DNA from: a virus | Lineage: Duplodnaviria; Heunggongvirae; Uroviricota; Caudoviricetes | Reading direction: 5' to 3' (one strand) | Length of the DNA stretch: 64,000 bases | IMG/VR virus record: IMGVR_UViG_3300035680_000003 | Part shown: one piece after another, positions 11,592 to 31,238 of the stretch | Numbering within the stretch: position 1 is the stretch's first letter | How the letters are laid out: each line of letters opens with the position of its first letter | The notes under the pieces: generated by a model | Told to the model about the DNA's origin: nothing | Databases searched by the model: none | The model's input: the letters and a program-made list of their open reading frames with translations, nothing else | Translations under genes and position numbers: made by a program

Positions 11592-12472
11592 ACAGCCATT
11601 GGTGCTTTAATAGCATCGTGACTAGTATAATTTACCAATTCAATATCGTCCATTGTAAACCCTGTGATGTTTTTGACAGCAGGGTTTAGTTTTAACTCTG
11701 GCAACGGTAATGGCTTACGTGCTAATTGCTCGTTAACCTGATCAACATGATTGGTGTAGATATGAGCGTCACCTAGGGTAATAATAAGTTCGCCGACTTC
11801 TAATTCACAGGCTTGTGCAATCATATGTGTGAACAGTGCATAGCTGGCAATGTTAAACGGTACTCCGAGGAACATGTCTGCACTACGTTGATACATTGAA
11901 CAACTTAGTTTCCCGTTGCTTACGTAGAATTGACTCATCATATGGCACGGAGGTAATGCCATTAGTTCTAGTTCGCCTGGATTCCATGCAGTAATGATAT
12001 GTCTACGACCGTAAGGGTCTTTCTTTAAGCCGTCAATTAAATTAAGCAACTGGTCGCAATTTTGTAGGACAACTTTGTTAATACGAACTAACGGAGCACG
12101 CCACTTTCGCCATTGCACGCCGTAGACACGACCGAGATCACCTGCATGCCGCTGGAGTCGTTTGTTTGTCCAGTAAGGTGCTGTGGCATTATCTGACCAT
12201 ATAGTTTTCTTATCGGTATAACGCTCACCGTGTAGGATTTCCTTTAAGCGATTCTCATCACCACTGCCTTCAATAAACCAAAGCAGTTCGCTAACACAGG
12301 CACGCCATGCTAGCTTCTTAGTAGTAACAGCAGGAAATCCTTTCTGCAGATCAAATCGCAATTGTACACCGAACTTACTAATAGTCCCGACTCCAGTTCT
12401 ATCGGGTCGCTGTTCACCTGTTGCTAAAATGTCTTTAAGTGCATTGAGATATGCTTGTTCTGGATGTGTCAT
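11588..12472 (-). CDS. thyA: Thymidylate synthase
   Basis: DRTGVGT, LPPCH (catalytic Cys), YQRSAD and GVPFN (Asn, dUMP specificity) motifs. Confidence 0.97.
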   Translation of the reverse strand: MTHPEQAYLNALKDILATGEQRPDRTGVGTISKFGVQLRFDLQKGFPAVTTKKLAWRACVSELLWFIEGSGDENRLKEILHGERYTDKKTIWSDNATAPYWTNKRLQRHAGDLGRVYGVQWRKWRAPLVRINKVVLQNCDQLLNLIDGLKKDPYGRRHIITAWNPGELELMALPPCHMMSQFYVSNGKLSCSMYQRSADMFLGVPFNIASYALFTHMIAQACELEVGELIITLGDAHIYTNHVDQVNEQLARKPLPLPELKLNPAVKNITGFTMDDIELVNYTSHDAIKAPMAV

Positions 12473-12945
12473 AAGTTGTATTCTTTTATTGTATATTTTA
12501 TCGGGTCATTAAGTATAGCGTGTTCTTTAACCTTTGTAAAGTGTTCTTTTACATAGGTAAGGTCAAAAAACTTATCACACTCATAGTCTGCATCTATTTC
12601 GGTAATATAAAATCTGTCAATAATATCGAGATATTGTTCATAAACGGCACTTCCGCCGATAATGAAAATTTCCTTATCAGGGTATTCTACAGAACAAAAA
12701 TCTAAGGCAGCACCGCAGTCGTCAAAGGTGTGATCACCTAGCACTCTCTTTCTGCTTATCACTACATTAATTCTATTAGGTAAAGATTTACCCAAACTAT
12801 CATATGTGGTTGAACCCATAATAACAACTTGATTAGTTGTCATTTGTTTAAACCACTGCATATCACCCCTAAGGTGAGGCCAGGGCATTTGACCATTAAA
12901 TCCTATGCCCTGGTTTCGTTCAACTGCAACTAAACAGTTAATCAT
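12469..12945 (-). CDS. folA: Dihydrofolate reductase
   Basis: GIGFNGQMPW, VIMGxxTY.S, LPNRINVVISR and IIGG motifs; translationally coupled to thyA. Confidence 0.95.
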   Translation of the reverse strand: MINCLVAVERNQGIGFNGQMPWPHLRGDMQWFKQMTTNQVVIMGSTTYDSLGKSLPNRINVVISRKRVLGDHTFDDCGAALDFCSVEYPDKEIFIIGGSAVYEQYLDIIDRFYITEIDADYECDKFFDLTYVKEHFTKVKEHAILNDPIKYTIKEYNL

Positions 12946-14108: not shown

Positions 14109-15377
14109 TTATTTATAATGCGCGGTCTGGCCGAATGGAGAAATTATGGCATCGTTACCGTGAATAATAAAGATAGTATCACAATAATCTTCATCTCCCC
14201 AGCTACCGCAGGGATAACCGTCAGTAAACATAATAAACTTCTTGGGTTGAATATCATTGTACTTCATGAATTCCCAGTTTGCATCAAAATCAGTACCACC
14301 GCCACCTTGGCAATCGTACTCGTTAATATCATCAGCAGTATCTCCGGTAAATTGTTTGTAACCGTATACGTTAGTATCAAAACACCACAAATCTAATTTA
14401 AAGTCCTTGTACTCATCCATAATACCTTTGACTTCTGACAAGAAATCTTTAGCCATAGCATCTGAAATACTACCAGACATATCGATTGCTACAGATACGT
14501 CAATAGTTTCTTCATTCATCATACCTGGCAAGATAGCGCCACATTGTTGACTCTTGCGGTTAGGGCGAGCAAAGCTAAAATTGCTTTTAAGAATACTTTG
14601 GATATTCATGCGCAACAGTTGTCGCCAGTCCATCTTTGGCTCAGTAAAGTCTTTGATCATTCTAGCAATACCTGCAGGCACTTTACCTGCACCTGCTGAT
14701 TGAGCAGCCGCTACCATAGCTTCTTTGATCTCATCACGGATTTGTTTCTTTTCTTCTGCAGTCAAACGTGGCCGGCCCTTACCACTTCCGTTAATTTCTT
14801 CTCCATCTTTGCCTTCACCTTCCCCATCTTCACCCTCACCATCTAGGTGTTCGTCGAGCAATTCCCCTAATTGGGAAATATCAATCTTTTCAGCCTTGTC
14901 GTAAAGGTCCTGATAAATCTGCTCGTAACTCCATCCGCGATATTTGTCGTCCTGGAAAATCTTAATAAAGCTAGGAACTGTACCGATACGTTCGTCTTTA
15001 AGAATTTGGTTAGCGGCATAGTCTGCGGCAATGTTTGACAGTTGAGGGTCGCGCCCGTCTCGCCGACCCATATGATCAAATACATTATGGAGGACCTCGT
15101 GTGCAAAGCCAAACTCTGCTTCCTTAGGAGTAAGTTTATTTACAAATCCTAAATTAAAATAAAAATTGCGACCATCTGTTGCAAGGGTTTGACACCAGTC
15201 GCTAGCCTCTACCATTTTCATTCGGGTAGCAAGATTACCAAAAAACGGATGGCGGAGCAAGAGCCCAACTCGTGCGGTAATTAGTTTATCGAGAATTTTA
15301 GCTTTTTCACTTTCGCTAAAAGTTTTACCTAACCAATCTTGTTTCTTTTGTTTTTCTTGTTTCATTACTGCGGACAT
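14109..15377 (-). CDS. Putative metallopeptidase (HEXXH) plus VWA domain protein (DUF2201/VWA-like)
   Basis: HEVLH motif, acidic Gly-rich linker, then the VWA MIDAS motif DMSGS, GGGGTDF and FTDG. Confidence 0.88.
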   Translation of the reverse strand: MSAVMKQEKQKKQDWLGKTFSESEKAKILDKLITARVGLLLRHPFFGNLATRMKMVEASDWCQTLATDGRNFYFNLGFVNKLTPKEAEFGFAHEVLHNVFDHMGRRDGRDPQLSNIAADYAANQILKDERIGTVPSFIKIFQDDKYRGWSYEQIYQDLYDKAEKIDISQLGELLDEHLDGEGEDGEGEGKDGEEINGSGKGRPRLTAEEKKQIRDEIKEAMVAAAQSAGAGKVPAGIARMIKDFTEPKMDWRQLLRMNIQSILKSNFSFARPNRKSQQCGAILPGMMNEETIDVSVAIDMSGSISDAMAKDFLSEVKGIMDEYKDFKLDLWCFDTNVYGYKQFTGDTADDINEYDCQGGGGTDFDANWEFMKYNDIQPKKFIMFTDGYPCGSWGDEDYCDTIFIIHGNDAIISPFGQTAHYK

Positions 15378-15403
15378 TTATTACTCCTAGTTGCGATAGT
15401 ACT

Positions 15404-15432
15404 ATTATACATTCAATTTATCAAAAGAGCAA
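15404..15432 (-). promoter_or_regulatory. Sigma70-type promoter for the VWA gene
   Basis: Minus strand reads TTGCTC-17 bp-TATAAT with an extended TG. Confidence 0.7.
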
Positions 15433-15434
15433 GT

Positions 15435-15453
15435 AAAAAGGCCCCTAAGGGCC
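15435..15453 (-). terminator. Intrinsic terminator after the MoxR ATPase gene
   Basis: Minus strand GGCCC-TTAG-GGGCC followed by TTTTT. Confidence 0.65.
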
Positions 15454-15457
15454 AATT

Positions 15458-16540
15458 TTAACCTTCCATTGCCTGGATAATGTACTTGCCGTACTTATCG
15501 TGGAACTTGTCAAAGTTCTTCAATTTGCTAGCATCAAACGGCAGTTGATAGTTAGTCAACGCAACCTTTGCACCCATAACAACTAATTCAGTTGGGAAGT
15601 TATCCATCATGAATCCAAAGAAGTTGTCTGCCATTTCATCCCAGTTCTTAGCTTTCTTTTTATCAGCTTCTTGGAGCTCGTAGCACAGGCTAATAGTCAA
15701 CGAATACATAGCAGAGATTTCTTTGATATCCGATTTCTTAATCTTACCTGCTAAGATATCTTCTGGTTTCGGCATCTGTTTAGCAACCTTGCGGTGTGCC
15801 ATAAATTTAACAGCAAGGCCCTCACCGATAGCACCTGCAATCAAATCAGTTAATGTGTTTTCTGGAACATCATCTTCCTCCAACAATTCGGATACAAATG
15901 ACCACGAGCGAGGAGTAGCAAATGAGCGTGAGCTAGACTTTGGATCAAAGTCATACAAGTCCTGCTTGGCAAAACCAATATAACCGACAACCTGTTCGTG
16001 AATTCTATTGTTAACTGCCCACTGATGCCAGTCTTCAAAATCTGTACGGAGTTCCAAATGCAGGAAACGGTTAGCCAACGGAGCAGGCATACGATAAGTA
16101 ACACCCTTGTCAGTTTCACGGTTACCTGCGGCAACAATGCTAACACCTTTTGGCAATTGATAAGTACCAACACGACGATTCAATACTAACTGGAAAGCCG
16201 CTGCCTGTGTAGCAGGAGCCGCAGAGTTCAATTCATCCAAAAACAGAATAGCAGTAGACTCTGGATCTGTAGGCAGTTCTGCAGGAGGTGCCCAAGTCAT
16301 TGTATTGGAAGTAGAATTGTAATACGGAATACCTTTAATGTCAGTAGGTTCCCATAAACTCAAACGAACGTCGATGACTTCGCGATCTGACTCATCGCCT
16401 AGTTGTTTAACAATATCGGATTTACCAATACCGGGGGGACCCCACATAAAAACCGGACGTTGCTTTTTCAAGCATTTACGGATAGCTGCCTTAGCTTCGT
16501 TTGGACCAACTGTGCGATTTGCGGAAATTTCTTTTGACAT
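15458..16540 (-). CDS. MoxR-like AAA+ ATPase
   Basis: Walker A GPPGIGKS, Walker B LFLDE, AAGNR and PLANRF motifs; adjacent to the VWA partner. Confidence 0.9.
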   Translation of the reverse strand: MSKEISANRTVGPNEAKAAIRKCLKKQRPVFMWGPPGIGKSDIVKQLGDESDREVIDVRLSLWEPTDIKGIPYYNSTSNTMTWAPPAELPTDPESTAILFLDELNSAAPATQAAAFQLVLNRRVGTYQLPKGVSIVAAGNRETDKGVTYRMPAPLANRFLHLELRTDFEDWHQWAVNNRIHEQVVGYIGFAKQDLYDFDPKSSSRSFATPRSWSFVSELLEEDDVPENTLTDLIAGAIGEGLAVKFMAHRKVAKQMPKPEDILAGKIKKSDIKEISAMYSLTISLCYELQEADKKKAKNWDEMADNFFGFMMDNFPTELVVMGAKVALTNYQLPFDASKLKNFDKFHDKYGKYIIQAMEG

Positions 16541-17551: not shown

Positions 17552-18045
17552 TGTTTGTTAACTGTGTTTAGTGCAGCTTTCATTTCGGATTCTGTTTTGT
17601 AAGGCCCATGAAAGGGATACCTTTCAAGAGTAATTAATTTAGGACAAAAACTTTTAACCCACCCTTTACGGAATTTAATAACATAGTAACCTGCACAATA
17701 TTGACTTTTACTTTTATCACTTTTAGCAAATAACGGTAACTTTTTCTTTACGTTATACATAGGATCGTATGGTTTAGATCCGCAAGGATAATCATATATG
17801 GAAAATGTTACAGATTCTGGTTCGTTAGATTTTTTAACAGAATCACTTAAGGTAATTCCTAACTCTTGTTTAAGTTCATCTAAATTTTTAAATTCAAACT
17901 TTTGTCCTTTGCGTAAAAATTCGTAACCTTTTTTATGTTTAGCAATGGACCCTATTTTTTTGTCTTCGTCCTTAATAAGCCATTCTTTATTTGGTACTAA
18001 TACTTTTGAAATTACATTCATATTATCTTCCTTGCTGATATTCAT
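17548..18045 (-). CDS. Hypothetical protein
   Basis: 165 aa ORF coupled to the nuclease gene. Confidence 0.65.
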   Translation of the reverse strand: MNISKEDNMNVISKVLVPNKEWLIKDEDKKIGSIAKHKKGYEFLRKGQKFEFKNLDELKQELGITLSDSVKKSNEPESVTFSIYDYPCGSKPYDPMYNVKKKLPLFAKSDKSKSQYCAGYYVIKFRKGWVKSFCPKLITLERYPFHGPYKTESEMKAALNTVNKQ

Positions 18046-19034
18046 GCTGAGTAACGAGCATTAAGAGGTTCTGCATAACTAGTAACCTGCTCGCCAATCT
18101 TAGGCAGATCGTATTCTGCACAGTATTTTAATAGTCGTACACCGACTTGTGGAATATTCTTATTTGCAGTGGTTGCACCAGTGATTGTTTCTGTAATTAA
18201 CAACTTAATATTATTGGGCTGTGCGGTAAGATCGCACAACACTACATTTCGATTATAATCATCCAATACACGATGCTCGACACCTTCGTGATCAGTCCAC
18301 TTCTGCAACATCATATTGTTCCAATTGTAGCCTTTGCTATCGCGGTCTGCAAATGCTTCACGAAGTCCAATTTTGTTCTTTGTACCCTTTTCACGGACAC
18401 CGGGATATGCACTGAAGATGTTGTCGCTTGTATCGCCACGCATACATTTTTCAAACAACAACCAAATAGGATCAGGTTCGGGTTTCGGCAACAGTGTTTT
18501 CTTGTCGATTACACGTTTACCTTTTTCATCAAAGTAGCCCTGGTGCGTTGTAGTAACTTGCATTACTCCGTTATACTGTTTTACATTTGGTGCAATTAAT
18601 TGTGCGAAGTCGCCGTCTGTCGAAATAATCACATGGCTGTCAGCTGGATGACTTTGAATCCAGCCTGCAATTAAATCATCAGCTTCGAGCTGCGGATGTT
18701 GTAAAACAGTACAATTAGTCTTGTTGGTAACAAAATCTTTAAACTGATCAAACGTTTCCCAAAACACTCGATCCTCTTCTTGTTCGCGTGGACTCTGAGC
18801 TGCCCGGGCTTCTGTACGCTGCCGCTTATAGGGAGCATAATAGTCCTTGCGCCAGCTACGCCCCTCTAAGAAAAAGATAACATGGTTACCATTAAATTCT
18901 CGCCACGCCTTGCGAACACTGCTCAATACAGTAGAGATACTCATACCTACTTTGTCTTCGATGCTGCCACGAACTACGTGACGTGCCCGAAAGAACGTGT
19001 TTGCTGTATCCACAAGGATATATGTTTTTGACAT
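18042..19034 (-). CDS. rnh: T4 RNase H-like 5'-3' exonuclease/flap endonuclease
   Basis: N-terminal LVD...FFR, LEADDLIA, STDGDFAQL and GDTSDNI motifs of the 5' nuclease family. Confidence 0.9.
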   Translation of the reverse strand: MSKTYILVDTANTFFRARHVVRGSIEDKVGMSISTVLSSVRKAWREFNGNHVIFFLEGRSWRKDYYAPYKRQRTEARAAQSPREQEEDRVFWETFDQFKDFVTNKTNCTVLQHPQLEADDLIAGWIQSHPADSHVIISTDGDFAQLIAPNVKQYNGVMQVTTTHQGYFDEKGKRVIDKKTLLPKPEPDPIWLLFEKCMRGDTSDNIFSAYPGVREKGTKNKIGLREAFADRDSKGYNWNNMMLQKWTDHEGVEHRVLDDYNRNVVLCDLTAQPNNIKLLITETITGATTANKNIPQVGVRLLKYCAEYDLPKIGEQVTSYAEPLNARYSA

Positions 19035-19502: not shown

Positions 19503-20351
19503 TCAAGTACCCCATTCGTTCTTAAACAATGGAACTTGCAATCTATCGCTATAACGGAGTCCGTTTTTCATAGCGGCTATTGCTACTGTTTTATTATTTA
19601 ATGCGTAAACACTCTCTACTCCACCTACCGGCATCAAATATACATGGCCAGTAAATCCTTCAGCGCGGAATTCTTCTGTAGCCCTTAGTGCATCTTCGAT
19701 ATCTTGTTCTGTTTCTACAACAAACTTCAAATATGCTGTTCCATAATTCTCATAGTCGCAAACAACTTTGGGTTTAATAGCATCTTTCCAGGGCTCGCCG
19801 CTTGCCGGCAGTTTAGCACTTACGCTAAATGTAATCTCTCTATCATCTCCGCCGAATGTCCAGTCTGTTAGATATTCTTTAAACTTTTCAGTTAAACGCA
19901 TTGTACCGTTAGTTTCAAAAGTAATTTCTTTAAGACCTTTCATGCAAGGTTGATTCAGCAAATCTGGATAGGCCTTTTGCCACCCCAACAACGGCTCACC
20001 ACCCGTGATAACAAGATGTTCGTCACGCCATTCTTTAAACGGCAATGTATCAACTACAGCCTTAGCAAGACCTTCAGTTTCGATCATCGGGCTTAGGTCT
20101 TTAAATGCAGGATGCCAACTTGCATAACTGTCGCAGCCTGTGCTAACTAGCGGAAGTGATTTGTATTCTGCAAATTCAACAGCACGTTCTGCAATTTTAT
20201 CTGCTTCTGCGCTCAGTTCACCGCGTGGCATACCAAAACCTTGACAGGTAAAGTTGCAGCCATATGTACGTAAGAATACAGAAGGGACGCCCATATAACG
20301 CCCTTCTCCTTGGATTGAATAGAATAGTTCGGATACTTTAATTTTGCTCAT
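19503..20351 (-). CDS. queE: 7-carboxy-7-deazaguanine synthase (radical SAM)
   Basis: FYSIQGEG...VFLRTYGCNFTC...CDS (third Cys displaced by an insertion), ITGGEPLL, ETNGT, SAK and RLQV motifs of QueE. Confidence 0.9.
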   Translation of the reverse strand: MSKIKVSELFYSIQGEGRYMGVPSVFLRTYGCNFTCQGFGMPRGELSAEADKIAERAVEFAEYKSLPLVSTGCDSYASWHPAFKDLSPMIETEGLAKAVVDTLPFKEWRDEHLVITGGEPLLGWQKAYPDLLNQPCMKGLKEITFETNGTMRLTEKFKEYLTDWTFGGDDREITFSVSAKLPASGEPWKDAIKPKVVCDYENYGTAYLKFVVETEQDIEDALRATEEFRAEGFTGHVYLMPVGGVESVYALNNKTVAIAAMKNGLRYSDRLQVPLFKNEWGT

Positions 20352-20427: not shown

Positions 20428-21279
20428 ATGAAAACAGTAGTAATCTGGCAGATACATAATTATTGCACAGGCGGCTGCGAATATTGTCCAAAAACATTTT
20501 GGGGAGGTGACAAACCTAGACACGTAGATGAATATCTAGCAGTAGCAAACACATTTATAGACCATTATGATAAAAAATTAGGAAGACATATTGACTGGAT
20601 ATTTAATGGTGGCGATCCGTTGGAATTTTTTGATTTCCCTGCACTGTTAAAACTATGTAAAGAAAATGGCGGAAATACTACACTACATACTGCCGGAGGA
20701 AAACTTTGGATGGATTGGTGGGCTATAGAACCTCATGTAGATTTTTTAAATCTTACATGCCACTCTTGGCAAAATTTAAATCTTATTAAATTTATTGTAA
20801 AAGCATTTCAAAAAAAATATAAACCATTTCATTTAGGTGTTCCTATTCGACCTGATTTTTTTGATGAAGATCTTAACCGCATAGATGAGCTCGAATCTTC
20901 ACTAGGAATTAAAGTTGGAAAAGAATTATTATATGTACAGGCTAGCAACTATCTAGGAAGATTAAACTATACCAAAGACCAGTTGATATATTTGTTTGGG
21001 GAAGAATGGGTTTTAAACAATCATGTCAGTGTTAACAAAACTTTTGAAGAAAGATCTGCAGAGAGTGTGCAGTCTAATCCTGTCTTTACAGGCAAACTAT
21101 GTAATACAGGTATAGAAAGAATTAATATAAGTGGAGAAGGTTGGGTCCGAGGAAGCGATTGTAATAATTCGCCTTTGGGAAATATATTTGATGGTAGTTT
21201 AGAACTACCATCTACTCCTCAAATTTGTAAAATGCAAGCCTGCATTTCGTCCGCAGATCAACTTATAACAAAATTTTAA
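20428..21279 (+). CDS. Radical SAM protein with C-terminal Cys cluster (SPASM/twitch-like)
   Basis: CxxxCxxC (CTGGCEYC), GGDP, and C-terminal CNTG...DC...GNI...CKMQAC. Inverted relative to its neighbours. Confidence 0.85.
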   Translation: MKTVVIWQIHNYCTGGCEYCPKTFWGGDKPRHVDEYLAVANTFIDHYDKKLGRHIDWIFNGGDPLEFFDFPALLKLCKENGGNTTLHTAGGKLWMDWWAIEPHVDFLNLTCHSWQNLNLIKFIVKAFQKKYKPFHLGVPIRPDFFDEDLNRIDELESSLGIKVGKELLYVQASNYLGRLNYTKDQLIYLFGEEWVLNNHVSVNKTFEERSAESVQSNPVFTGKLCNTGIERINISGEGWVRGSDCNNSPLGNIFDGSLELPSTPQICKMQACISSADQLITKF

Positions 21280-21551
21280 GTATTAAAAATATTAGACCAT
21301 TGTTTTAATTTTTCAATCTTAGCAGCTTTTGCAACTTCTAAGTGCTCTAACGATATTACATTCTTTTCCAACATAATATCGATCATTGCTAACATATCGC
21401 CTAATTCTTCTTCAAGGTGTTCTCGATTAGTTTTGGACTTACCTGGCTTGAAGTTGTCAATACCGAATCGACTAATCTTACTTACTGCTTGAATTACTTC
21501 AGCACATTCTTCTTGTAGAATGTCCATCACTTCTTTAGTTTGACTGTTCAT
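21276..21551 (-). CDS. mazG: MazG-like NTP pyrophosphohydrolase
   Basis: EECAE and EEELGD acidic helical motifs. Confidence 0.8.
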   Translation of the reverse strand: MNSQTKEVMDILQEECAEVIQAVSKISRFGIDNFKPGKSKTNREHLEEELGDMLAMIDIMLEKNVISLEHLEVAKAAKIEKLKQWSNIFNT

Positions 21552-21556
21552 TTATA

Positions 21557-21733
21557 TTATCCGTTATTGAGTTGTTCTTGGAATCTGCTAGTAAATGCAT
21601 CTTTTAGGCATGAGTATTTTTGTTGTGTCTTTGAGTTTACATAAAAGATCCAAGTTTGCTCGTTGATAATTTCTATATTTTTGATAATAAATGTTGTTCT
21701 ATCAGCCGATTGCCAGACACTTCCAATTTTCAT
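21557..21733 (-). CDS. Small hypothetical protein (58 aa, below ORF-track cutoff)
   Basis: MKIGSVWQSADRTTF...QEQLNNG; ATGA overlap with the cupin gene. Confidence 0.55.
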   Translation of the reverse strand: MKIGSVWQSADRTTFIIKNIEIINEQTWIFYVNSKTQQKYSCLKDAFTSRFQEQLNNG

Positions 21734-22188
21734 TTTACTGCCTTTTCTTCTAGATATTCTGTATTATGGATCCACTTATTCTTTACAAGAAAACCCCATT
21801 CTCGTTTTTGTGGACCAGGCATGAACATTGTCCAACAGTCTGTTCCTTCTTTAAGCTCAACACGGTGATAGCTATTAGCAGGGCAAATACGGCAGTGCCC
21901 AGGACCACGCCAATGCCGTGTTTCACTGATCTTGGCACCTTGTGAATCAAAGTTAGGAGTCCATTCATAATAACCGCCTTTTAAGATAAGTGTAGCGTAA
22001 GACCATGGATGATCATGTACATCATCGGGGTCTGACTTAAGAAACTTGTGAATGAACACATTAAAGGGGAAATGCTTTCTGTCTTTAAGAAAAATGTAGT
22101 AGCGTTCGAGGTAAGGTTCATTATTTTGTCTATCCATTACAATTCTTTTGCGACCAACACGTTCTAAAAAGTTTAGAAACCATTTCAT
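21730..22188 (-). CDS. Cupin-fold metal-binding protein
   Basis: HDHPW...GYYE and a downstream YHRV His, the two-motif cupin pattern. Confidence 0.75.
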   Translation of the reverse strand: MKWFLNFLERVGRKRIVMDRQNNEPYLERYYIFLKDRKHFPFNVFIHKFLKSDPDDVHDHPWSYATLILKGGYYEWTPNFDSQGAKISETRHWRGPGHCRICPANSYHRVELKEGTDCWTMFMPGPQKREWGFLVKNKWIHNTEYLEEKAVK

Positions 22189-23258
22189 TTGATCATCTCC
22201 AGTAATTTATTTGCACTAAAGAATAGTTCTGTTAAATCAGCTGCCTGCTTGCGAACCTGCGGCACCCGCTTGTCATAATGAGACATAGTAACAATAATGT
22301 GATGACATAATTCTTGTCTATGTGCTAGGTAACTGTTCCAGTCCTTAGTCCACTCACTAGGATATTTGAATCCTTCATAATACATTTCACTATAACTTAA
22401 TCTATCCGGCACCATAGGTATAGCATCTACTAATGCACCTTCGTAGCAACTAATACCCAGTGTCTCTTGCAAATTTGCACTGAAAATAATCTTAGCACGA
22501 CCTAGCAACTTGTGATATTCATGCTTGTCCAACTGCGTATCTTGACACACAATAAATTCATATTGTGGTAAGTGTGTAGCCAAGTCACGGAAAATTTCAA
22601 CCTGTTTCTCTGGAGCAATACGATGTGGGAACAAGATAAGATCATGCTTGGAACTGGTGTTATAGTTCTCTAAGGTATCAGCCATATATTCCATGGGCCA
22701 CCCTGTACGAACAATTTGCTTGTCCTGCATATAACGCATAGAACCTGTTCGGAAATCAATACCTAACAAATTTTCCATAAACATTTCAATATGAAATTTT
22801 GTTGCAAAATAGTTGTGATCAAATGCGTGGAAGAAACTCTTTTCGGCGTGTCTAACCCAGGGCCTGTTGCCAACAAGACGACCTAGGAAGTCTTGAGGGT
22901 CATAACTACCGGCGTGCCATAGTCCATGTGTTGTTACTGGAATACCCAGCAACTCACTCATATACTTGAGATTGATGATACCAGGGTGCCAAGCATCAGT
23001 AAATATAAAATGATCACCTGCATGAACGGCTCCGTCGCAAAATAGCCGACCCATCTGCTCAACCTGCCGAGCTTTGTAGATGTTTGTGCCGCCAAAATTA
23101 AGAAAAGCCCCAGGGGTAGTAGCACTAGGAATATCTGTGGGACCAGAGATAATTTGAACATTGTGTCCTGCCTTTTTAAGTAGATCAGGTACATGAGTCT
23201 TCCATTGACCCGTATACCTTGTCTCGACAGATTCTAAATCAACGAGAAAAATTGTCAT
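22185..23258 (-). CDS. GT-B fold glycosyltransferase (GT4-like)
   Basis: C-terminal LFPHRIAPEKQ...Y..LL.RAKIIFSANLQETLGISCYEG...PMVP matches the GT4 nucleotide-sugar binding region (ExFG/ExLG...E). Confidence 0.78.
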   Translation of the reverse strand: MTIFLVDLESVETRYTGQWKTHVPDLLKKAGHNVQIISGPTDIPSATTPGAFLNFGGTNIYKARQVEQMGRLFCDGAVHAGDHFIFTDAWHPGIINLKYMSELLGIPVTTHGLWHAGSYDPQDFLGRLVGNRPWVRHAEKSFFHAFDHNYFATKFHIEMFMENLLGIDFRTGSMRYMQDKQIVRTGWPMEYMADTLENYNTSSKHDLILFPHRIAPEKQVEIFRDLATHLPQYEFIVCQDTQLDKHEYHKLLGRAKIIFSANLQETLGISCYEGALVDAIPMVPDRLSYSEMYYEGFKYPSEWTKDWNSYLAHRQELCHHIIVTMSHYDKRVPQVRKQAADLTELFFSANKLLEMIK

Positions 23259-23481
23259 TGTTTTGGCCTCTAGGCTTATAATCCTTGCGGTAGTTTTTAC
23301 GATCGCCCTGATAAGGAGGACGAGAAAAATACCTGTATTCCTGTGACCTATACAAGTCTGAAGGGTTATAAGGAAGGAGGTTAAATCTGCAATGATCTAA
23401 CCAAGCATCGAGATCATCAAAGATCTTTTCAACTTCGGGTTTCATACGAAGAGTTTTCTGAATGTAGGCAGGTTGTGCCAT
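23239..23481 (-). CDS. Hypothetical protein
   Basis: 80 aa ORF overlapping the start of the glycosyltransferase gene. Confidence 0.6.
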   Translation of the reverse strand: MAQPAYIQKTLRMKPEVEKIFDDLDAWLDHCRFNLLPYNPSDLYRSQEYRYFSRPPYQGDRKNYRKDYKPRGQNNDNFSR

Positions 23482-23487
23482 AATGTT

Positions 23488-23889
23488 TTACCTTTGTGTA
23501 GTATTAAAGGGTTGAGGAAATTTAATGAAGCAGCCATTCTCGCCGTCTTCACTTACGTCAATCCAGATCTCACGACCTGGATATCTTGCCGAAATGGTTC
23601 CATGAAGATCACGGCTTATCATTTCACAGGATTTGTGGTTAAGTTCGAGTGTACCATCTGCATAGCAGTGCTCTAACCAACGCTTAAACTGAATAAACTC
23701 AATATCACGATCATCGTGAAATACTTGAATATAGATTTTAAAATGGAAAATGTGACGGTGCGGAGTACCGAGGAAACTAACATCGTACATGTTGCCTGTG
23801 GCAAGTTTGGGGTCTGTAGCCGCAGCCGGATACATATGAACACCCTCCTTACGAAAGGTGACCCAAATCATATTAAGTTCTTGATTCAT
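23488..23889 (-). CDS. QueD-like T-fold protein, DpdL-like (putative CDG decarboxylase)
   Basis: LGTPHRHIF, DRDIEF, SCE and VSEDGENG; T-fold size. The SCE and EDG-like elements parallel QueD. The LxxxHRHxF signature is my recollection for DpdL and needs an HMM check. Confidence 0.65.
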   Translation of the reverse strand: MNQELNMIWVTFRKEGVHMYPAAATDPKLATGNMYDVSFLGTPHRHIFHFKIYIQVFHDDRDIEFIQFKRWLEHCYADGTLELNHKSCEMISRDLHGTISARYPGREIWIDVSEDGENGCFIKFPQPFNTTQR

Positions 23890-24062
23890 TACTGTGCTTT
23901 AACCTTTGTGGTTTTTTTAGCGGGTGCCGATTTTTCAGGAAGATTATCTTTCATCATATTATAGATTTCCCATAACTTCCAGTCAATGCTTTCGAGCAAT
24001 TTAAATAATTTTTCTTCTGAACTTTGTTGATTTGCTTGTTTTGTAACTTTAGAGTTAATCAT
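23889..24062 (-). CDS. Small hypothetical protein (57 aa, below ORF-track cutoff)
   Basis: MINSKVTKQ...LLESIDWKLWEIYNMMK; ATGA and TAATG overlaps with both neighbours. Confidence 0.6.
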   Translation of the reverse strand: MINSKVTKQANQQSSEEKLFKLLESIDWKLWEIYNMMKDNLPEKSAPAKKTTKVKAQ

Positions 24063-24571
24063 TTTATTACCTTGTCGTTTTTATATTGTGCCCAGTCTGT
24101 AAACTTACTACGATCCATTAGTGTGTGTAGACTGTGGGACCATACACCGGGATTAGTTGCCTTAAAATCTTTGTCGTCAATCTTTAACATAGTGTTATAG
24201 TTCCAAAGACGAATGTAAGGAATAGGTACACGAATTTGTGGAATAAAATTATCACGCTCGCAAAGCCCGCCTTCGTGGAATTCTTCTACTTGGTGAATTG
24301 GAATATCCAATGAACACAGGTATTCTTTATCAAGGAAGAACATAATCATTTCTTCCCAGACTTTGTGTTCTTCGTAAGTTTGTGGATTATAACTATGATT
24401 TGCGCCAAAGAAAATATGCTCGCAACCTTGCAAGTTTAGTGCAATATGCTCGCTAGATTGAACTCCTGTAACAAACAATGTTTTCATGCCGTATGCAGGA
24501 GTGTGCTCAACTTCAGTACCAGTAAAGAAAATTACATCTTCACTAATACCTGTATCGTAATCACGCTTCAT
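24059..24571 (-). CDS. Enzyme-like hypothetical protein in the deazaguanine cluster
   Basis: 170 aa with GTEVEHTP, HIFFGANHS and KIDDKDF...NPGVW motifs; function not recognised. Confidence 0.7.
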   Translation of the reverse strand: MKRDYDTGISEDVIFFTGTEVEHTPAYGMKTLFVTGVQSSEHIALNLQGCEHIFFGANHSYNPQTYEEHKVWEEMIMFFLDKEYLCSLDIPIHQVEEFHEGGLCERDNFIPQIRVPIPYIRLWNYNTMLKIDDKDFKATNPGVWSHSLHTLMDRSKFTDWAQYKNDKVIK

Positions 24572-24846: not shown

Positions 24847-25050
24847 TTATTCCTTAAAATAACTTTCCATTATGTCCAACTTGTCTTGATATTCAGCAAT
24901 CAATGCTACTTCTTTTTCAATAGCATCCATTAAGTCAGTATGGTCATGTAGTGCCATGGGATTGCTCAACATAATGTCTACATTCATTTTGTGCTTGAAA
25001 ATGTGTGCTTTAAAATGGTGTTTTAATACGCTAATAATTTCTTGTCTCAT
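24847..25050 (-). CDS. Hypothetical protein (small helical, T4-like phage type)
   Basis: 67 aa ORF coupled to the TGT-like gene. Confidence 0.6.
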   Translation of the reverse strand: MRQEIISVLKHHFKAHIFKHKMNVDIMLSNPMALHDHTDLMDAIEKEVALIAEYQDKLDIMESYFKE

Positions 25051-26705
25051 TCTATATCTCCTAATGTGCCTTCTTCAAGTTTTCGTAGTTCGTCGTCATC
25101 TGGGTTAGCAAGATCAATTTCTTCAACCTTAGTAACTTCTTCAATTTCGAACAAGTTATTAAACTTGTTTTGAGCAGGACCGCCTTGTAGTCGAGCACCT
25201 TCTAAACTACGCAGGAATGGACCAGCTTGTTCGATCATTGCAAATGCATCTGCTTTAGTAGCAGTATTAAATAAGTCTTCAACAAAGCTGTTGAAGTATA
25301 AGATATTACGGGGAACCCAATCACTAAACTCATCGCTCATATCCTGTCCCTTGACTTTCTTCCATTGCTTCCAAGTCAGCTTGTCTTTAGATTTAGCAAT
25401 CTCAATGTCCATTAATTGTTGAGCACGTTGAACAGCAACAATATGACATTCGACATTATGTCCCATCATCAATGCATAGGCAAAGCTATCCCAACTTGTT
25501 CTATTTGGAATCTTACCTAATTTGTTAAGTCTAGGTACAACATGGTAGTGTTCTGGTTCTAAATGGTTAAATTCAATTTTTCCACCACGTGGACCAAAAC
25601 CTAATTCTTCGTCTGTTTTACGAACGCCTAAATCGTAGTAGGCAATGTCAGCCATTGTTAGTCTGCGACCGATTGACGATTCGAAAGGGAACGGGATATC
25701 TGATCCTGATAGTGCTTTGTTATCTGGTGCCTTGTCCATAATAACACTCCACCTTTTTGGCGTGTGGACTGCGTTTGTGTAGACAAGTCCGTGCGCTGTT
25801 GCAATGAACGGTGAGGCGCAGTCAAAAGATATGGTAATTTCTTCATTGATGTGTTTCCTGATTTGTCTTTGAATTAAAGTTAAGTAGCAACTCCAGTCAA
25901 GTTGCGCTGTACCCAAGAAGTGGATCCAGTTTTTGCCCTTCAGCAAACCATCTTCTCTAAGTGTCATTAAACGCTTGAGAGTAATATCCATCTTGCACAT
26001 GTTAGCACCACCAAAGGCCCAACCTTCTGCTTCACGCCCTGCATACTTACCTGCCGGGTCGCTAAATTCTTTTACACCTGCATACCACTTTTCAGCAGTG
26101 TCCCAATCACTACCTTGCAGAACGTTGAGCCATTTAGTTTGACCCATTCTGTTCATCAAAAAGTAATCGTTATTGTATCGAGTCTTATCTAAGCAGTCAT
26201 CAAATGTCTTTAGTCCAGTTTTAGGACTGTGAATGTGATCACATGCCCATGTTGGAACGTCTAGCATCATTGACCAATCGGCTGTGACTTCGAGCCACTC
26301 GAGAATCTTCTGACGAGTCTTAGTAGCTTCCTTGCCTTCAAAGTCTAACCAGTCAAACTTAAGAACACCCTTACCAATCTGGTATCCACCTGAGTCGCCT
26401 AAGATCATAGTGTTATTACGATCACGCTGTTGAATCATGGACTCTTGTTCTAAACTCTTAGTAAGATCTAATTGTGCATGACCCGCAGAGTACAGACCGT
26501 ATTTGTAAGTAAAGTATCCTTGTTCAGGATTTAAAAAGTTCATACCTTCGATACCACGATCAAAACCTGCAGGAATACGATCTGTTGGTACGAATTCACC
26601 TAGTCGTTGTTTAGCAACATAGGTACTGTAGAAACTACTAATTGCAGGCAAATAGACTGCATAGTCTTTCTGTAATGGTGTTAGGTTAACTTGTTGTTTC
26701 GTCAT
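25047..26705 (-). CDS. dpdA: Guanine transglycosylase (TGT-fold), probable DNA-modifying DpdA-family enzyme
   Basis: TGT catalytic motifs appear in the correct order: DSGGYQ, MMLD, LQG, GWAFGG, IHFLG, SFDC and a late HN. Located between the polymerase/clamp genes and queE. Confidence 0.8.
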   Translation of the reverse strand: MTKQQVNLTPLQKDYAVYLPAISSFYSTYVAKQRLGEFVPTDRIPAGFDRGIEGMNFLNPEQGYFTYKYGLYSAGHAQLDLTKSLEQESMIQQRDRNNTMILGDSGGYQIGKGVLKFDWLDFEGKEATKTRQKILEWLEVTADWSMMLDVPTWACDHIHSPKTGLKTFDDCLDKTRYNNDYFLMNRMGQTKWLNVLQGSDWDTAEKWYAGVKEFSDPAGKYAGREAEGWAFGGANMCKMDITLKRLMTLREDGLLKGKNWIHFLGTAQLDWSCYLTLIQRQIRKHINEEITISFDCASPFIATAHGLVYTNAVHTPKRWSVIMDKAPDNKALSGSDIPFPFESSIGRRLTMADIAYYDLGVRKTDEELGFGPRGGKIEFNHLEPEHYHVVPRLNKLGKIPNRTSWDSFAYALMMGHNVECHIVAVQRAQQLMDIEIAKSKDKLTWKQWKKVKGQDMSDEFSDWVPRNILYFNSFVEDLFNTATKADAFAMIEQAGPFLRSLEGARLQGGPAQNKFNNLFEIEEVTKVEEIDLANPDDDELRKLEEGTLGDIE

Positions 26706-27843: not shown

Positions 27844-30516
27844 TCAATCAAAGGAAAATAATTTGCCAAAGGTATTGTCTTGGGTAGTTGATTCTAAATC
27901 CCAATCCAGCACACCGATGAGGTTGTCCAGTTTGTTGTTAATGATAGCAGTTTCCATTTCGCTGTGATCGAATGGCAGGTCTTGGAACCATTTAGGTAAT
28001 CGCATCTCATCGACCGGATAAGCAATGGATGTGTAGCCTAATGGATTGTCTTTAACTTTACAAACAATGACCTTCATGCCGTCAACAATGCCCATTGAGT
28101 ATTTGTCACCGTTCATGCGTTTTAGCGTATTCCAGTTAATAGCAGCACGGACATGCCCTGGCATATTAGCCTTGCCTTGTTTAGCTTCCTTGGCTTGATA
28201 CTCTGTGATGTTGTTAGCTCGTTTGGGACTACCCTTCTCCCAACCTGGACGGGCTTTGAACTCAGTCCGGAACGCACTGATCATTTCTAGAATTTCTTGT
28301 TCCTCTGCACCATTCAGTACTCGAGTAAGAACTTCTTCTAAGAACTTTTGCATAAATTCGGGAGTATCACTACGCTTAAGATCTAGACCCATAGCTTTGA
28401 TCTTACCTGGCTTACCGTCAGTGTCCTGTCTCTTACCATCTTTGTCGTAATACAATACTGCATAACGTTTCTTGGTAATGAACAGGCCTTTAACAGCAAC
28501 AATTTCTCGCCCACCTTTGATAACCTCACCGCGTGTCTTTGGGCAATGAAATGCATCCAACATGAACTGCGGGAATGTTGCATTTACGTTTTCGGCAATC
28601 TGATCATACAACTGAATAACAACATCTCTATCCCAAGGGATTAGCTTTTTGTTAATATCAGTCTTTAGCGTATTATAAGCTGAGAAGTAGCAACTGTCAG
28701 TATCACCGTAGATAATACTCTTACCTACGTGATCAAACTCACCGGTAATCATTTCATTGACTTTGCCTGCCATATGCTTGGCAATCTGCCTGCCAACAAG
28801 TGTAGTGGACTGCCCAATACGCTTATCAAAGAATCTGCAACCAGGATTCAAAATAGCACCATACAAACTATTCAAGTTAATCTTCTTGACCAACTGTCGC
28901 TTGTCCCAATACTCTTCTTCGATCTTGTTACCTGCTTCGATAGCTGCCTTGAGCTTCTTCTGCATATCTTTACGTTCAGCATACCATCGCTTTAACAGTC
29001 CAGGAATAATGCCTTCATGTTCATAGGTAAAGATAGTGCCGTTGGCGCTTAACATCCAAGGTTGATTACTGTCAAAGATTAACTTATATGCTTCAGCTGC
29101 ACTCATAATATCACTTTGATCGTTTTCCCAATCAACTGTAATTTCAAATGCACGGTCCTGTTGCATAACTGCTTCATACTCTAGGCTACCAAACATACCT
29201 TCCCAAGCCGCCGCAAATGATTTTTTATGAACCATCATTTGTTCATCGATATGTTGATCTGTCCTGTCCTGACGTAACTGACCGATGATAGTTTCTGGAC
29301 CCATGTTGAGCGCACGAATAGCTGACGGATACAATGAGTTAATGTCAATAGATCCGATCCAGTCGTGGATACCTTTCTTGGGATATGCAACATAAGCACC
29401 TGCTGCCTGATTATTTGCGTCCTCGTCACGTTTGGCACGATTGGGCACAATGAGACCACGGTGGTGGGCTTCGTTTACAATAGCCTGTTCAGTTACAGCA
29501 ACTGCACCCATTGTGGTCTGTAATAGCACCGTACATTCGTGTGCCAGTGTGTTAGCAAGATCGATAAACTTTAGTTTCTTATCCAGCTTGTCTAACAATG
29601 CGGTATCTTGTCTGTTGTACTCAATGAACTTACGGAAGTCATTGTTATATAACTGATCAAGTGTACCTTCATAGTGAGTCTTGCTCTCGCCTACTTCCAT
29701 CTCTCCAATGGCATCCAGTCGGTAAGTGTGTCGCTCTTCATATGTGTATTTGCGGTACAGCTCGAGACTGTCCAGATGAACACGACCAACCAGATCATAA
29801 GTAACAGCCGCTTTTCCATATTTTTCGTACTCTCTCTTCTTGGGAAATTGACCCCACAGACAAAATCTACGAGTGTCTTCTTTACTCAGTGCTTTGATAA
29901 CTCTGTTAACTGTGTAAGGGATATCATAGCCTTCACTGTTCCATCCACTGAGAATGTCAGCATCTTGAATGAGATCCAAAAACGCATCTAACATCTCTGC
30001 TTCAGTTTCAAACAGATGTGTATTAGGAAAGTCCTTAACTAACGCTGTTGCTTGCTCCATTGTCAGGGTCTTTGGAGGAACAGCAAAGCAGACCAGTGTG
30101 TCTAACCATTGTAGGTGAACAGCAATCGATGTAATAGGCATGAAAGCATCCTCGGGGGTGCTATAACCTCTTTCAGGATCAAAGTCCACCTCAATGTCGA
30201 AGAACGCCACATTGAGTTTAGGCGGTTCGTGATTGAGATAGTTTTCTTCTAGGGTTTTGAATACAGTGTTGATGTCTGATTCATACAGTCTGTGGCTGCT
30301 GTGGATCCGTTGTTCTTTTTGAAAGTCTTTGTAGGACCTTGTGACAACTTTATTTAGATTTTCACCGTAAATTGATTTGTATTTTCCGCGTTGATCGGGA
30401 TAATAAAATGTATATCTTGCAGGAAACTCCTGAAAGATTCTGCCTTTCTTTAGATCACGCTCAACGACATGCACAATGTCTTTGTCGCGATCCCACATGG
30501 CATCGACGTAGCTCAT
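27844..30516 (-). CDS. Family B DNA polymerase (gp43-like)
   Basis: Exo motifs FDIE, GWNSEGYD and YNRQD; polymerase motifs DINSLYPS, KINLNSLYG, YGDTDS and KKRY. The start is likely ATG 30516 (SD AAGGAG), not 30546. Confidence 0.97.
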   Translation of the reverse strand: MSYVDAMWDRDKDIVHVVERDLKKGRIFQEFPARYTFYYPDQRGKYKSIYGENLNKVVTRSYKDFQKEQRIHSSHRLYESDINTVFKTLEENYLNHEPPKLNVAFFDIEVDFDPERGYSTPEDAFMPITSIAVHLQWLDTLVCFAVPPKTLTMEQATALVKDFPNTHLFETEAEMLDAFLDLIQDADILSGWNSEGYDIPYTVNRVIKALSKEDTRRFCLWGQFPKKREYEKYGKAAVTYDLVGRVHLDSLELYRKYTYEERHTYRLDAIGEMEVGESKTHYEGTLDQLYNNDFRKFIEYNRQDTALLDKLDKKLKFIDLANTLAHECTVLLQTTMGAVAVTEQAIVNEAHHRGLIVPNRAKRDEDANNQAAGAYVAYPKKGIHDWIGSIDINSLYPSAIRALNMGPETIIGQLRQDRTDQHIDEQMMVHKKSFAAAWEGMFGSLEYEAVMQQDRAFEITVDWENDQSDIMSAAEAYKLIFDSNQPWMLSANGTIFTYEHEGIIPGLLKRWYAERKDMQKKLKAAIEAGNKIEEEYWDKRQLVKKINLNSLYGAILNPGCRFFDKRIGQSTTLVGRQIAKHMAGKVNEMITGEFDHVGKSIIYGDTDSCYFSAYNTLKTDINKKLIPWDRDVVIQLYDQIAENVNATFPQFMLDAFHCPKTRGEVIKGGREIVAVKGLFITKKRYAVLYYDKDGKRQDTDGKPGKIKAMGLDLKRSDTPEFMQKFLEEVLTRVLNGAEEQEILEMISAFRTEFKARPGWEKGSPKRANNITEYQAKEAKQGKANMPGHVRAAINWNTLKRMNGDKYSMGIVDGMKVIVCKVKDNPLGYTSIAYPVDEMRLPKWFQDLPFDHSEMETAIINNKLDNLIGVLDWDLESTTQDNTFGKLFSFD

Positions 30517-30585
30517 ATAGTTCTCCTTACCGCTTATGGCCGGCAACCGTTCTTGTGATCATTTATAGCTGATCAAACTTTTCTC

Positions 30586-30885
30586 TTATATATTTAACAA
30601 TCTAATATAGCCGATGACGTCTATAGTGACTAACAGTAGGTAGTTGGCTACCATACCTGTGCTCTTTCGAGTCCATGATGCCCATGCAAAAATTGCACAT
30701 TGCAAAATAAATATCGGATACAGATAGAAAAACAGCGGATCAGTTGCACCTGCTGCCAATGTCAGAGAGCAGCCTAAACTCATTAACCATGCTGAAATTT
30801 CTAACGAAAATCGGACAGGCCATTCTCGATAGTCATTCCTGGCCCAGTTGTACACGTTTCCAAGTACAGTTGTAAGTCTAGTCAT
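30586..30885 (-). CDS. Small membrane protein
   Basis: 99 aa with three hydrophobic segments. Confidence 0.7.
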   Translation of the reverse strand: MTRLTTVLGNVYNWARNDYREWPVRFSLEISAWLMSLGCSLTLAAGATDPLFFYLYPIFILQCAIFAWASWTRKSTGMVANYLLLVTIDVIGYIRLLNI

Positions 30886-31238
30886 TAATCTGCCTGTCTT
30901 GTAATAAAATTTACCCTAATTTTTTTAGGATTAAAATATTTTGTTACTACATTCTGTGCAGTTAGCAAATCAAACTCTTTACAACTAAAAATATCAAAGT
31001 ATGCAGTTCCGTCGAGTTCCATAAAATGACCACAAATATTACTTGTAGTTATTAGCTGCATTAAGCTGTAACCTTGTTTTGAATCTCCAGGTAACAAATA
31101 TTCGATTATAGGTTCTCCGTACGCGACCATGTCGATCTTGTCAACAAGGTCTTTTACAAAATTATAAATGTTATCTTTGCAGTGAATTTGTTCACAACCA
31201 CTACAATCTAACATTAAATGATATCCCCAGTGGCTCAT
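30885..31238 (-). CDS. speD: S-adenosylmethionine decarboxylase proenzyme-like (class 1B)
   Basis: GYHL.LD..GC N-terminus, LITT|SNICGH at the pyruvoyl self-cleavage position, and DIFSC motif. Confidence 0.75.
   Translation of the reverse strand: MSHWGYHLMLDCSGCEQIHCKDNIYNFVKDLVDKIDMVAYGEPIIEYLLPGDSKQGYSLMQLITTSNICGHFMELDGTAYFDIFSCKEFDLLTAQNVVTKYFNPKKIRVNFITRQAD

Follow-up and report, generated by a model that had tools for sequence, protein, structure and literature searches.

Every sugar-bearing DNA base described so far is, to our knowledge, a pyrimidine. The DNA of phage phiST carries plain 2′-deoxy-7-deazaguanine (dDG) at 100% (Cui, Hutinet et al., NAR 2023, PMC10516641). The same study separated the DpdL family from QueD by the signature LxxxHRHxF as opposed to CxxxHGH, and proposed, without validation for any member, that DpdL is a decarboxylase of 7-carboxy-7-deazaguanine (CDG); dpdL together with dpdA from phiST or from phage ACP17 gave no dDG in Escherichia coli (PMC10516641). 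DNA of phage PA5oct resists restriction at G-containing sites, and a modified G was inferred, without identification, in the preprint (PMC12191111). Here, we analyzed a 64,000-nucleotide stretch of DNA (hereafter the window) from an uncultured giant T4-like phage (IMG/VR record IMGVR_UViG_3300035680_000003), in which four consecutive genes encode a DpdL-like protein, a protein of 80 amino acids (aa), a glycosyltransferase (GT), and a cupin. An initial annotation of this DNA had proposed that the cupin oxidizes a deazaguanine and that the GT then adds a sugar. We found that the GT is tied to deazaguanine genes across phages, whereas the data do not support the cupin as its obligatory hydroxylase partner. 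A full-text literature search returned no paper describing a glycosylated deazaguanine in DNA, in agreement with the annotation's view that such a base is absent from the characterized phage repertoire, and mentions of DpdL were found in Cui et al. only.

RESULTS

Four coupled genes include dpdL and a predicted GT4-type glycosyltransferase gene

The four genes are co-oriented on the minus strand and tightly packed, as first annotated. The 133-aa DpdL open reading frame (ORF; 23488-23889) lies 6 bp from the 80-aa ORF (23239-23481), which overlaps the 357-aa GT ORF (22185-23258) by 20 bp; the GT ORF in turn overlaps the 152-aa cupin ORF (21730-22188) by 4 bp (ATGA). All four are conserved in related loci. 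Local jackhmmer searches of 80 related IMG/VR contigs (those retrieved with the GT as query) and the other loci fetched yielded 84 loci for the 133-aa protein and 79 for the 80-aa protein; the counts for the GT and the cupin were 89 and 73. Single-sequence searches of Pfam and NCBIfam gave no match for any of the four, megablast of the sequence against phages gave none, and phmmer against the Protein Data Bank (PDB) returned nothing useful.

Motif and homology evidence identified the 133-aa protein as a DpdL-family T-fold protein, a paralog of QueD. Its LGTPHRHIF is an exact match to the DpdL signature, and the protein aligned end to end with the phiST and ACP17 DpdLs (alignment of 10 DpdLs and 3 canonical QueDs). 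Identity by tblastn was 68% to Phosso, 56% to ACP17 (4e-37), 50% to the PA5oct group, and 31% to phiST DpdL (2e-5), and the protein matched phrog_17812 at 1e-32. Judged by its sequence, this protein is a DpdL. In Vibrio phage Bakedbeans, we also observed that DpdL makes up the C-terminal third of gp176 (383 aa; locus L095, 8227-9378), which has a further N-terminal domain of ∼260 aa. The 80-aa protein always lies between DpdL and the GT in the 80 related IMG/VR loci. It appears lineage specific: no homolog was detected in the PA5oct, Phosso, ACP17, or X1 clusters, and no family match was found in Pfam, NCBIfam, or PHROG.

The 357-aa protein is predicted to adopt a GT-B fold of the retaining GT4 type. 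An AlphaFold2 model built with an alignment of 40 diverse relatives reached a predicted local distance difference test score (pLDDT) of 95.4 and a predicted template modeling score of 0.91. The best Foldseek matches of this model were BshA, GlgM, glycogen synthase, MshA, and PimA (E ∼1e-10), and VIA-align gave Z scores of 26.1 for sucrose-phosphate synthase, 24.6 for BshA, 20.7 for a pteridine GT (5zer), and 18.0 for the T4 α-GT; full-length structural matches to GT4/GT5 retaining enzymes fell at Z 20-26. The C-terminal domain carries an E-x7-E nucleotide-sugar motif (E265 nearly invariant and E273 invariant among the 40 diverse members) that aligns with the same motif of PDB 8xsg, a glycosyltransferase matched by the family profile at 4e-4. 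The window GT has no match to Pfam Glycos_transf_1 (PF00534) at E ≤ 0.1 and does not reach the gathering score, although its homologs in X1 (45.5 bits) and BUCT-ZZ01 (26.5 bits) pass this model. We are confident that the window protein is a divergent GT4-type member, as judged by profile and predicted fold rather than by the Pfam model. The family is acidic (median isoelectric point [pI] of 5.7), but so is the DpdA-like protein described below, so that net charge does not discriminate as an indicator of DNA binding. It is also very abundant in metagenomes, where more than 8000 clusters at 90% identity were scored and 1131 clusters at 50% identity matched at E ≤ 0.001.

The same region encodes a putative DpdA-type transglycosylase and a QueE-like enzyme

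A 552-aa protein encoded on the minus strand (25047-26705) was assigned by profile-profile comparison to the DpdA-type transglycosylases, which have the tRNA-guanine transglycosylase (TGT) fold. Aligned with hhalign, its family (A3) matched accepted phage DpdAs (A4, an alignment that includes VH7D, pf16, ACP17, X1, BUCT-ZZ01, and BCSR5) with a probability of 96% over 193 columns (E = 4.9e-9), and the motifs DSGGxQ, IHxLG, and isxD align between the two. The protein is 43% identical to a PA5oct-group protein encoded directly beside the GT. Pfam TGT does not match it and likewise misses the accepted DpdAs of ACP17 and X1. A homolog search returned only relatives of at least 86% identity, which carry no Pfam labels, and a profile of the accepted phage DpdAs found nothing among PDB sequences. 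Taken together, the profile and motif evidence indicates that the 552-aa protein is a divergent DpdA-type transglycosylase. Its C-terminal extension of ∼150 aa (25047-25500) is absent from 402-aa homologs in loci L087 to L090 and has a weak phmmer match (E = 0.0016) to 6xwx_B, a chain annotated as "chromosome segregation in meiosis protein"; the extension may serve in docking to the replisome.

A QueE-like radical SAM enzyme of the CDG synthase type is encoded at 19503-20351 (minus strand). It matched phrog_2076 at 2e-52, with weak NCBIfam QueE matches below the curated cutoffs. The DpdA-like gene and queE are the only such genes that accompany dpdL in the window, where we found no FolE, QueD, QueC, QueF, or phosphoribosyltransferase (PRTase). 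Among five large contigs of relatives (40 to 79% complete), FolE was present in 5/5, QueD in 2/5 (elsewhere on the contig), and QueC in 0/5, consistent with the DpdL pathways without QueC that Cui et al. described (PMC10516641). Family searches of the window proteins found no 2-oxoglutarate (2OG) oxygenase in the cluster. The window ThyA is a canonical thymidylate synthase paired with DHFR (11588-12945, minus strand), and no pyrimidine hydroxymethylase was evident.

The glycosyltransferase clusters with deazaguanine genes in eight divergent phage lineages

In eight divergent phage lineages, at most a few genes separate the GT from DpdL and a DpdA-type transglycosylase, and usually from QueE as well. 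In the 80 close relatives, DpdL, the 80-aa protein, and the GT follow one another without interruption wherever this stretch is covered; because these relatives form one lineage, whose shared order could be inherited, the distant lineages are the informative cases. The PA5oct group (GT 43% identical) has the order polymerase, clamp, DpdA-like, GT, DpdL, small ORF, short-chain dehydrogenase/reductase (SDR), PRTase, QueE, and Phosso (GT 49%) has clamp, one gene, DpdL, GT, one gene, FolE, and, after further genes, QueE. ACP17 (GT 33%) encodes QueD..FolE, a homolog of the window 170-aa protein, DpdA, GT, DpdL, and QueE, and X1 and BUDD (GT 27%) encode FolE, three genes, GT, DpdA, DpdL, and QueE. 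The BCSR5 order is DpdL-..-GT-446aa-x-QueE-..-FolE, where the 446-aa gene aligns with the phage DpdAs of A4, and that of cyanophage BUCT-ZZ01 is QueE-PRT-x-QueD-FolE-GT-DpdA-DpdL-GT. An uncultured branch, seen through its representative P0229, has polymerase, DpdL, GT, and DpdA. This variation in gene order among lineages argues against frozen synteny alone.

All seven cultured-phage lineages with a full-length member of the GT family, as detected by tblastn or family profile, place it in a DpdL/DpdA/QueE cluster. The GT profile (A1) recovered the GT in 5/5 positive-control genomes and in 0/5 phages with DpdL only (phiST, RHph_I1_18, Ahp1, Bakedbeans, and D479). Phages pf16 and VH7D, which have DpdA with QueC/QueF and lack DpdL, carry no GT in their clusters and were not among the matches of the GT; QueC is present in these two phages and absent from six complete GT- and DpdL-encoding genomes of cultured carriers. 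A remote relative of the GT in phages PhiXhv and Ep032 (∼26% identity over 64% of the query) sits beside GlmS and a BshB-like deacetylase, without deazaguanine genes, so the link holds for the family proper and not for every distant GT4 enzyme. Independence of the GT from dpdA and queE, which by the initial annotation would have spoken against its proposal, was not seen in the lineages examined: the GT remains linked to dpdA, dpdL, and queE.

Some of these modules also encode sugar-nucleotide enzymes, namely, a UDP-glucose/GDP-mannose dehydrogenase (10 relatives) and an epimerase-family SDR (PA5oct group), which favors a chosen nucleoside diphosphate (NDP)-sugar donor. The two Glycos_transf_1 genes that flank DpdA-DpdL in Synechococcus phage BUCT-ZZ01 (L091, 5665-7008 and 8656-9822) differ from each other, and one belongs to the GT family; the pair hints at a disaccharide or at two alternative sugars.

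The cupin is a lineage-specific neighbor of the glycosyltransferase

The 152-aa protein is probably a small cupin resembling cysteine dioxygenase (CDO), as judged by profile and motif. It matched phrog_4786 ("cysteine dioxygenase") at 2.4e-40 and has an HDH...YH motif, in which three conserved His residues would form a metal-binding site of the type found in thiol dioxygenases. It had no Pfam CDO_I or Cupin_2 match, the Cupin_2 matches in the PDB were weak (E ∼0.2 to 0.5), and the ESM Atlas gave weak CDO-like leads only. The identities first given to the DpdL and GT-B genes are upheld by signature and predicted fold, and that of the cupin gene, more tentatively, by family match and motif.

The role first assigned to the cupin fared less well: its occurrence apart from dpdA/queE, which the initial annotation had named as evidence against the proposal, was observed. 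Its family is represented in 103 phage records, most of them from small phages of Mycobacterium, Gordonia, Burkholderia, Xylella, and Achromobacter, and no GT- or DpdL-carrying phage was among the 40 records listed. Conversely, the cupin was not found in PAC2 (PA5oct group), Phosso, ACP17, X1, or RHph_I1_18 when their whole genomes were searched; the first four of these carry the GT. Within the window lineage the cupin is common (72/80 related loci), and it directly follows the GT with the ATGA overlap in 15 of these 72; in most relatives, 0.1 to 4.7 kb of other genes, including FolE and PRTase, intervene. Among 57 relatives, the interval from GT to QueE contained FolE in 45, PRTase in 38, a HIT protein in 22, the UDP-glucose/GDP-mannose dehydrogenase in 10, and an HhH-GPD glycosylase-family protein in 7 (example loci for the dehydrogenase, HIT, and HhH-GPD genes are L076, 13309-14190; L030, 13506-13970; and L033, 3039-3536). 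Because other genes so often intervene, the tight GT-cupin overlap of the window represents the pared-down state of one sublineage. The cupin is probably a passenger or lineage-specific accessory rather than the hydroxylase; it may act on the base within the window lineage, but it is not a general partner of the GT. Hydroxylation followed by glycosylation is likewise not supported as a general logic, since the cupin was not found with the GT in the genomes examined outside the window lineage. The "epimerase" gene of PA5oct was considered as a counterpart of the cupin and rejected, as it encodes an SDR and not a cupin.

Neighboring genes and transcription signals

The module occupies a minus-strand stretch between DNA polymerase (27844-30546) and RNase H (18042-19034). 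Reading from the polymerase, this stretch contains the sliding clamp, the 552-aa DpdA-like protein, several small ORFs, a 170-aa protein, and the four genes described above, followed by a 58-aa ORF (21557-21733, minus strand; 4-bp overlap with the cupin ORF and present in a minority of related loci), a MazG-like gene, a radical SAM gene on the opposite strand, and the QueE-like gene. A promoter-like site upstream of DpdL (23986-23958, minus strand) matches 11/12 positions of the sigma-70 consensus, a second site just upstream of QueE (20409-20382, minus strand) matches 12/12, and a terminator-like hairpin follows MazG (21212-21190), all three as consensus matches only. These signals suggest a DpdL-to-MazG transcription unit distinct from QueE; the placement of the four genes in one operon is based on their shared strand, their overlaps, and these consensus signals.

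The 170-aa protein (24059-24571, minus strand) is conserved in 73 loci and travels with the module. Its ACP17 homolog lies immediately upstream of dpdA (L083, 10236-10718; 3e-42 after iteration), and a weak relative adjoins a second GT paralog in L087. An AlphaFold2 model of the protein (pLDDT 84) had no confident fold match: STAS, metallo-beta-lactamase, and QueE tied at the best Z of 6.7, the QueE rows were not read as meaningful, and the ESM Atlas gave nothing. The MazG-like nucleoside triphosphate pyrophosphohydrolase (21276-21551, minus strand) matched Pfam MazG above the cutoff (1.2e-6) and phrog_4856 at 8e-23. Wedged between it and QueE, the opposite-strand radical SAM protein (20428-21279, plus strand) has a CxxxCxxC motif, a weak Radical_SAM match, and weak similarity to the STM4011 and viperin-type families; found in 10 related loci only, it may be a mobile or optional gene for tailoring or defense. 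A purine-type PRTase lies beside QueE in three lineages (38/57 relatives, the PA5oct group, and BUCT-ZZ01; L057, 10451-11083; L081, 11330-11764; L091, 3748-4209). This enzyme could salvage guanine released by DpdA or make deazapurine nucleotides as in tubercidin biosynthesis. Elsewhere, the window encodes an S8 subtilase (5194-6861, plus strand), a MoxR-type AAA ATPase with a DUF2201 metallopeptidase/VWA partner (14109-16540, minus strand), and a gene matching phrog_3125, annotated as S-adenosylmethionine decarboxylase (30885-31238, minus strand).

DISCUSSION

With moderate confidence, we favor the explanation that the replication operon of this giant T4-like phage includes a QueC-less 7-deazaguanine DNA modification module, to which the region belongs, and that the GT glycosylates a deazaguanine-derived base. 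From the enzyme identities and their linkage, we infer the following chemistry. FolE, QueD, and QueE would produce CDG, with FolE and QueD encoded in relatives rather than in the window. DpdL would convert or handle CDG, DpdA would swap a deazaguanine base for guanine in DNA, and the GT, with an NDP-sugar as donor, would glycosylate the deazaguanine-derived base, either in its free form or once inserted. The sugar linkage would probably be alpha, because GT4 enzymes are retaining. A glycosylated deazapurine would result and would protect the DNA against nucleases; the cupin, the 80-aa protein, and the opposite-strand radical SAM protein would be lineage-specific additions, dispensable for the core reaction. 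The modified G of PA5oct and the absence of dDG from dpdL and dpdA alone fit this hypothesis. More tentatively, the virion DNA of the window lineage and of the PA5oct group, ACP17, X1/BUDD, BCSR5, Phosso, and BUCT-ZZ01 may carry a sugar-bearing 7-deazaguanine-derived base; a core of DpdA, DpdL, and the GT4 enzyme would make it with no dedicated hydroxylase, a scheme that would call for unusual acceptor chemistry.

Several observations weigh against glycosylation of the base. Foremost, no acceptor atom is evident, because plain 7-deazaguanine has no obvious hydroxyl for glycosylation and the minimal ACP17 cluster has no oxygenase. For the same reason, the sugar would have to be attached as an N-glycoside, as a C-glycoside, or through an ester of the CDG carboxyl, and we know of no precedent for any of these in DNA. 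Insertion as such does not require the GT, since phiST makes dDG with DpdL and without the GT. The closest structures to the GT are small-molecule GT4 enzymes (Z 24 to 26, versus 18 for the T4 α-GT), and the acidity of the family does not favor DNA binding, although the DpdA-like protein shares this property. FolE, QueD, and PRTase are absent from the window itself. Finally, the eight lineages are all large myovirus-like phages with similar replication modules, so that part of the linkage could be inherited synteny, though the gene order differs.

Of the alternatives, the one that best withstands these data is that the GT acts on a small-molecule precursor and that the sugar does not persist in the final DNA, the base of which would be plain dDG or 2′-deoxy-7-carboxy-7-deazaguanine; we consider this unlikely. 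The sugar could form a transient glycosyl ester of CDG that aids DpdL-dependent decarboxylation, or the GT could glycosylate a pterin intermediate, as does the cyanobacterial pteridine glycosyltransferase. Such roles are consistent with the small acceptors of the nearest structures (BshA, sucrose-phosphate synthase, GlgM, MshA, and the GT4 pteridine glucosyltransferase 5zer), with the acidity of the family, with the fact that the closest partner of the GT is DpdL, a T-fold protein that binds pterins or purines, and with the failure of dpdL plus dpdA alone to yield dDG (PMC10516641). Yet phiST and four other DpdL phages do without this GT, and phiST nevertheless reaches complete dDG substitution. 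A sacrificial sugar would be an unusual route to decarboxylation, and the dedicated sugar-nucleotide enzymes of some clusters suggest instead a sugar that is chosen and retained.

More doubtful is the sequence first proposed, restricted here to the window lineage, in which the cupin would create a hydroxyl by oxidizing either the deazaguanine itself or its 7-substituent, for the GT to glycosylate as happens in T4 glucosyl-hydroxymethylcytosine (glucosyl-hmC) and base J. The hydroxyl would supply the missing acceptor, the metal motif resembles that of thiol dioxygenases, and the cupin is frequent in this lineage, in places with the same ATGA overlap. Against this, the cupin is missing from five complete genomes of DpdL phages, its family is spread among unrelated phages, most relatives separate it from the GT, and it is not a 2OG oxygenase of the TET/JBP type. 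Least probable is a GT target unrelated to deazaguanine (a cell envelope glycan, a protein of phage or host, or a different DNA base), with the gene placed by clustering of early DNA metabolism genes. In its favor, GT4 acceptors are very varied and the PhiXhv/Ep032 relative lacks deazaguanine genes; against it, all seven cultured lineages keep the full-length GT in the DpdL/DpdA/QueE cluster despite rearranged order, and the window shows a canonical ThyA with DHFR and no evident pyrimidine hydroxymethylase.

If our favored explanation is correct, a sugar on a deazapurine would constitute a new class of DNA hypermodification; we know of no earlier glycosylated purine analogue in any DNA. Such a base would affect restriction, CRISPR, and glycosylase-based defenses as well as the sequencing of uncultured phages. 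Two published observations would also be accounted for, namely, the modified G of PA5oct, a therapeutic-candidate jumbo phage, and the failed reconstitution of dDG from dpdL and dpdA alone. Seven carrier lineages are in culture, making the question directly approachable.

The proposed base would share with T4 glucosyl-hmC and base J a sugar on a noncanonical base that blocks nucleases, and the locus shares with T4, which has alpha- and beta-glucosyltransferases, a GT-B enzyme among DNA metabolism genes. In those systems, however, a dedicated hydroxymethylase or 2OG oxygenase makes a hydroxymethyl pyrimidine, whereas the partner genes in the window would make a deazapurine with no conserved hydroxylase, and the window GT resembles small-molecule GT4 enzymes more closely than those of T4. 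The only described sugars on a 7-deazaguanine nucleoside in nucleic acid are those of mannosyl- and galactosyl-queuosine in animal tRNA (QTMAN/QTGAL; PMC12518689). These differ in that the nucleic acid is RNA rather than DNA and the sugar is attached to the cyclopentenediol hydroxyls of queuosine, a side chain that the window phage is predicted to be unable to make because it has no QueC, QueF, QueA, or QueG.

The phiST DpdL/DpdA3 system is closer (PMC10516641). It shares with the window a DpdL with the LxxxHRHxF signature, a distant TGT-like DpdA, a MazG-like gene (beside DpdL in phiST), and placement next to replication genes, and its QueC-less FolE/QueD/QueE pathway is the one predicted for the window phage. 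Unlike the window, phiST has no member of the GT family anywhere in its genome, and its DNA contains plain dDG; the window adds the GT4 enzyme, the 170-aa protein, and the cupin, and its DpdA belongs to a different, longer branch. Cultured, unlike the window phage, and with an SDR and PRTase rather than a cupin in its cluster, the Pseudomonas jumbo phage PA5oct (Wroclawvirus; PMC12191111) nevertheless carries the same module: its DpdA-like protein (43% identical), GT (43%), and DpdL (50%) are encoded by adjacent genes, with QueE a few genes downstream.

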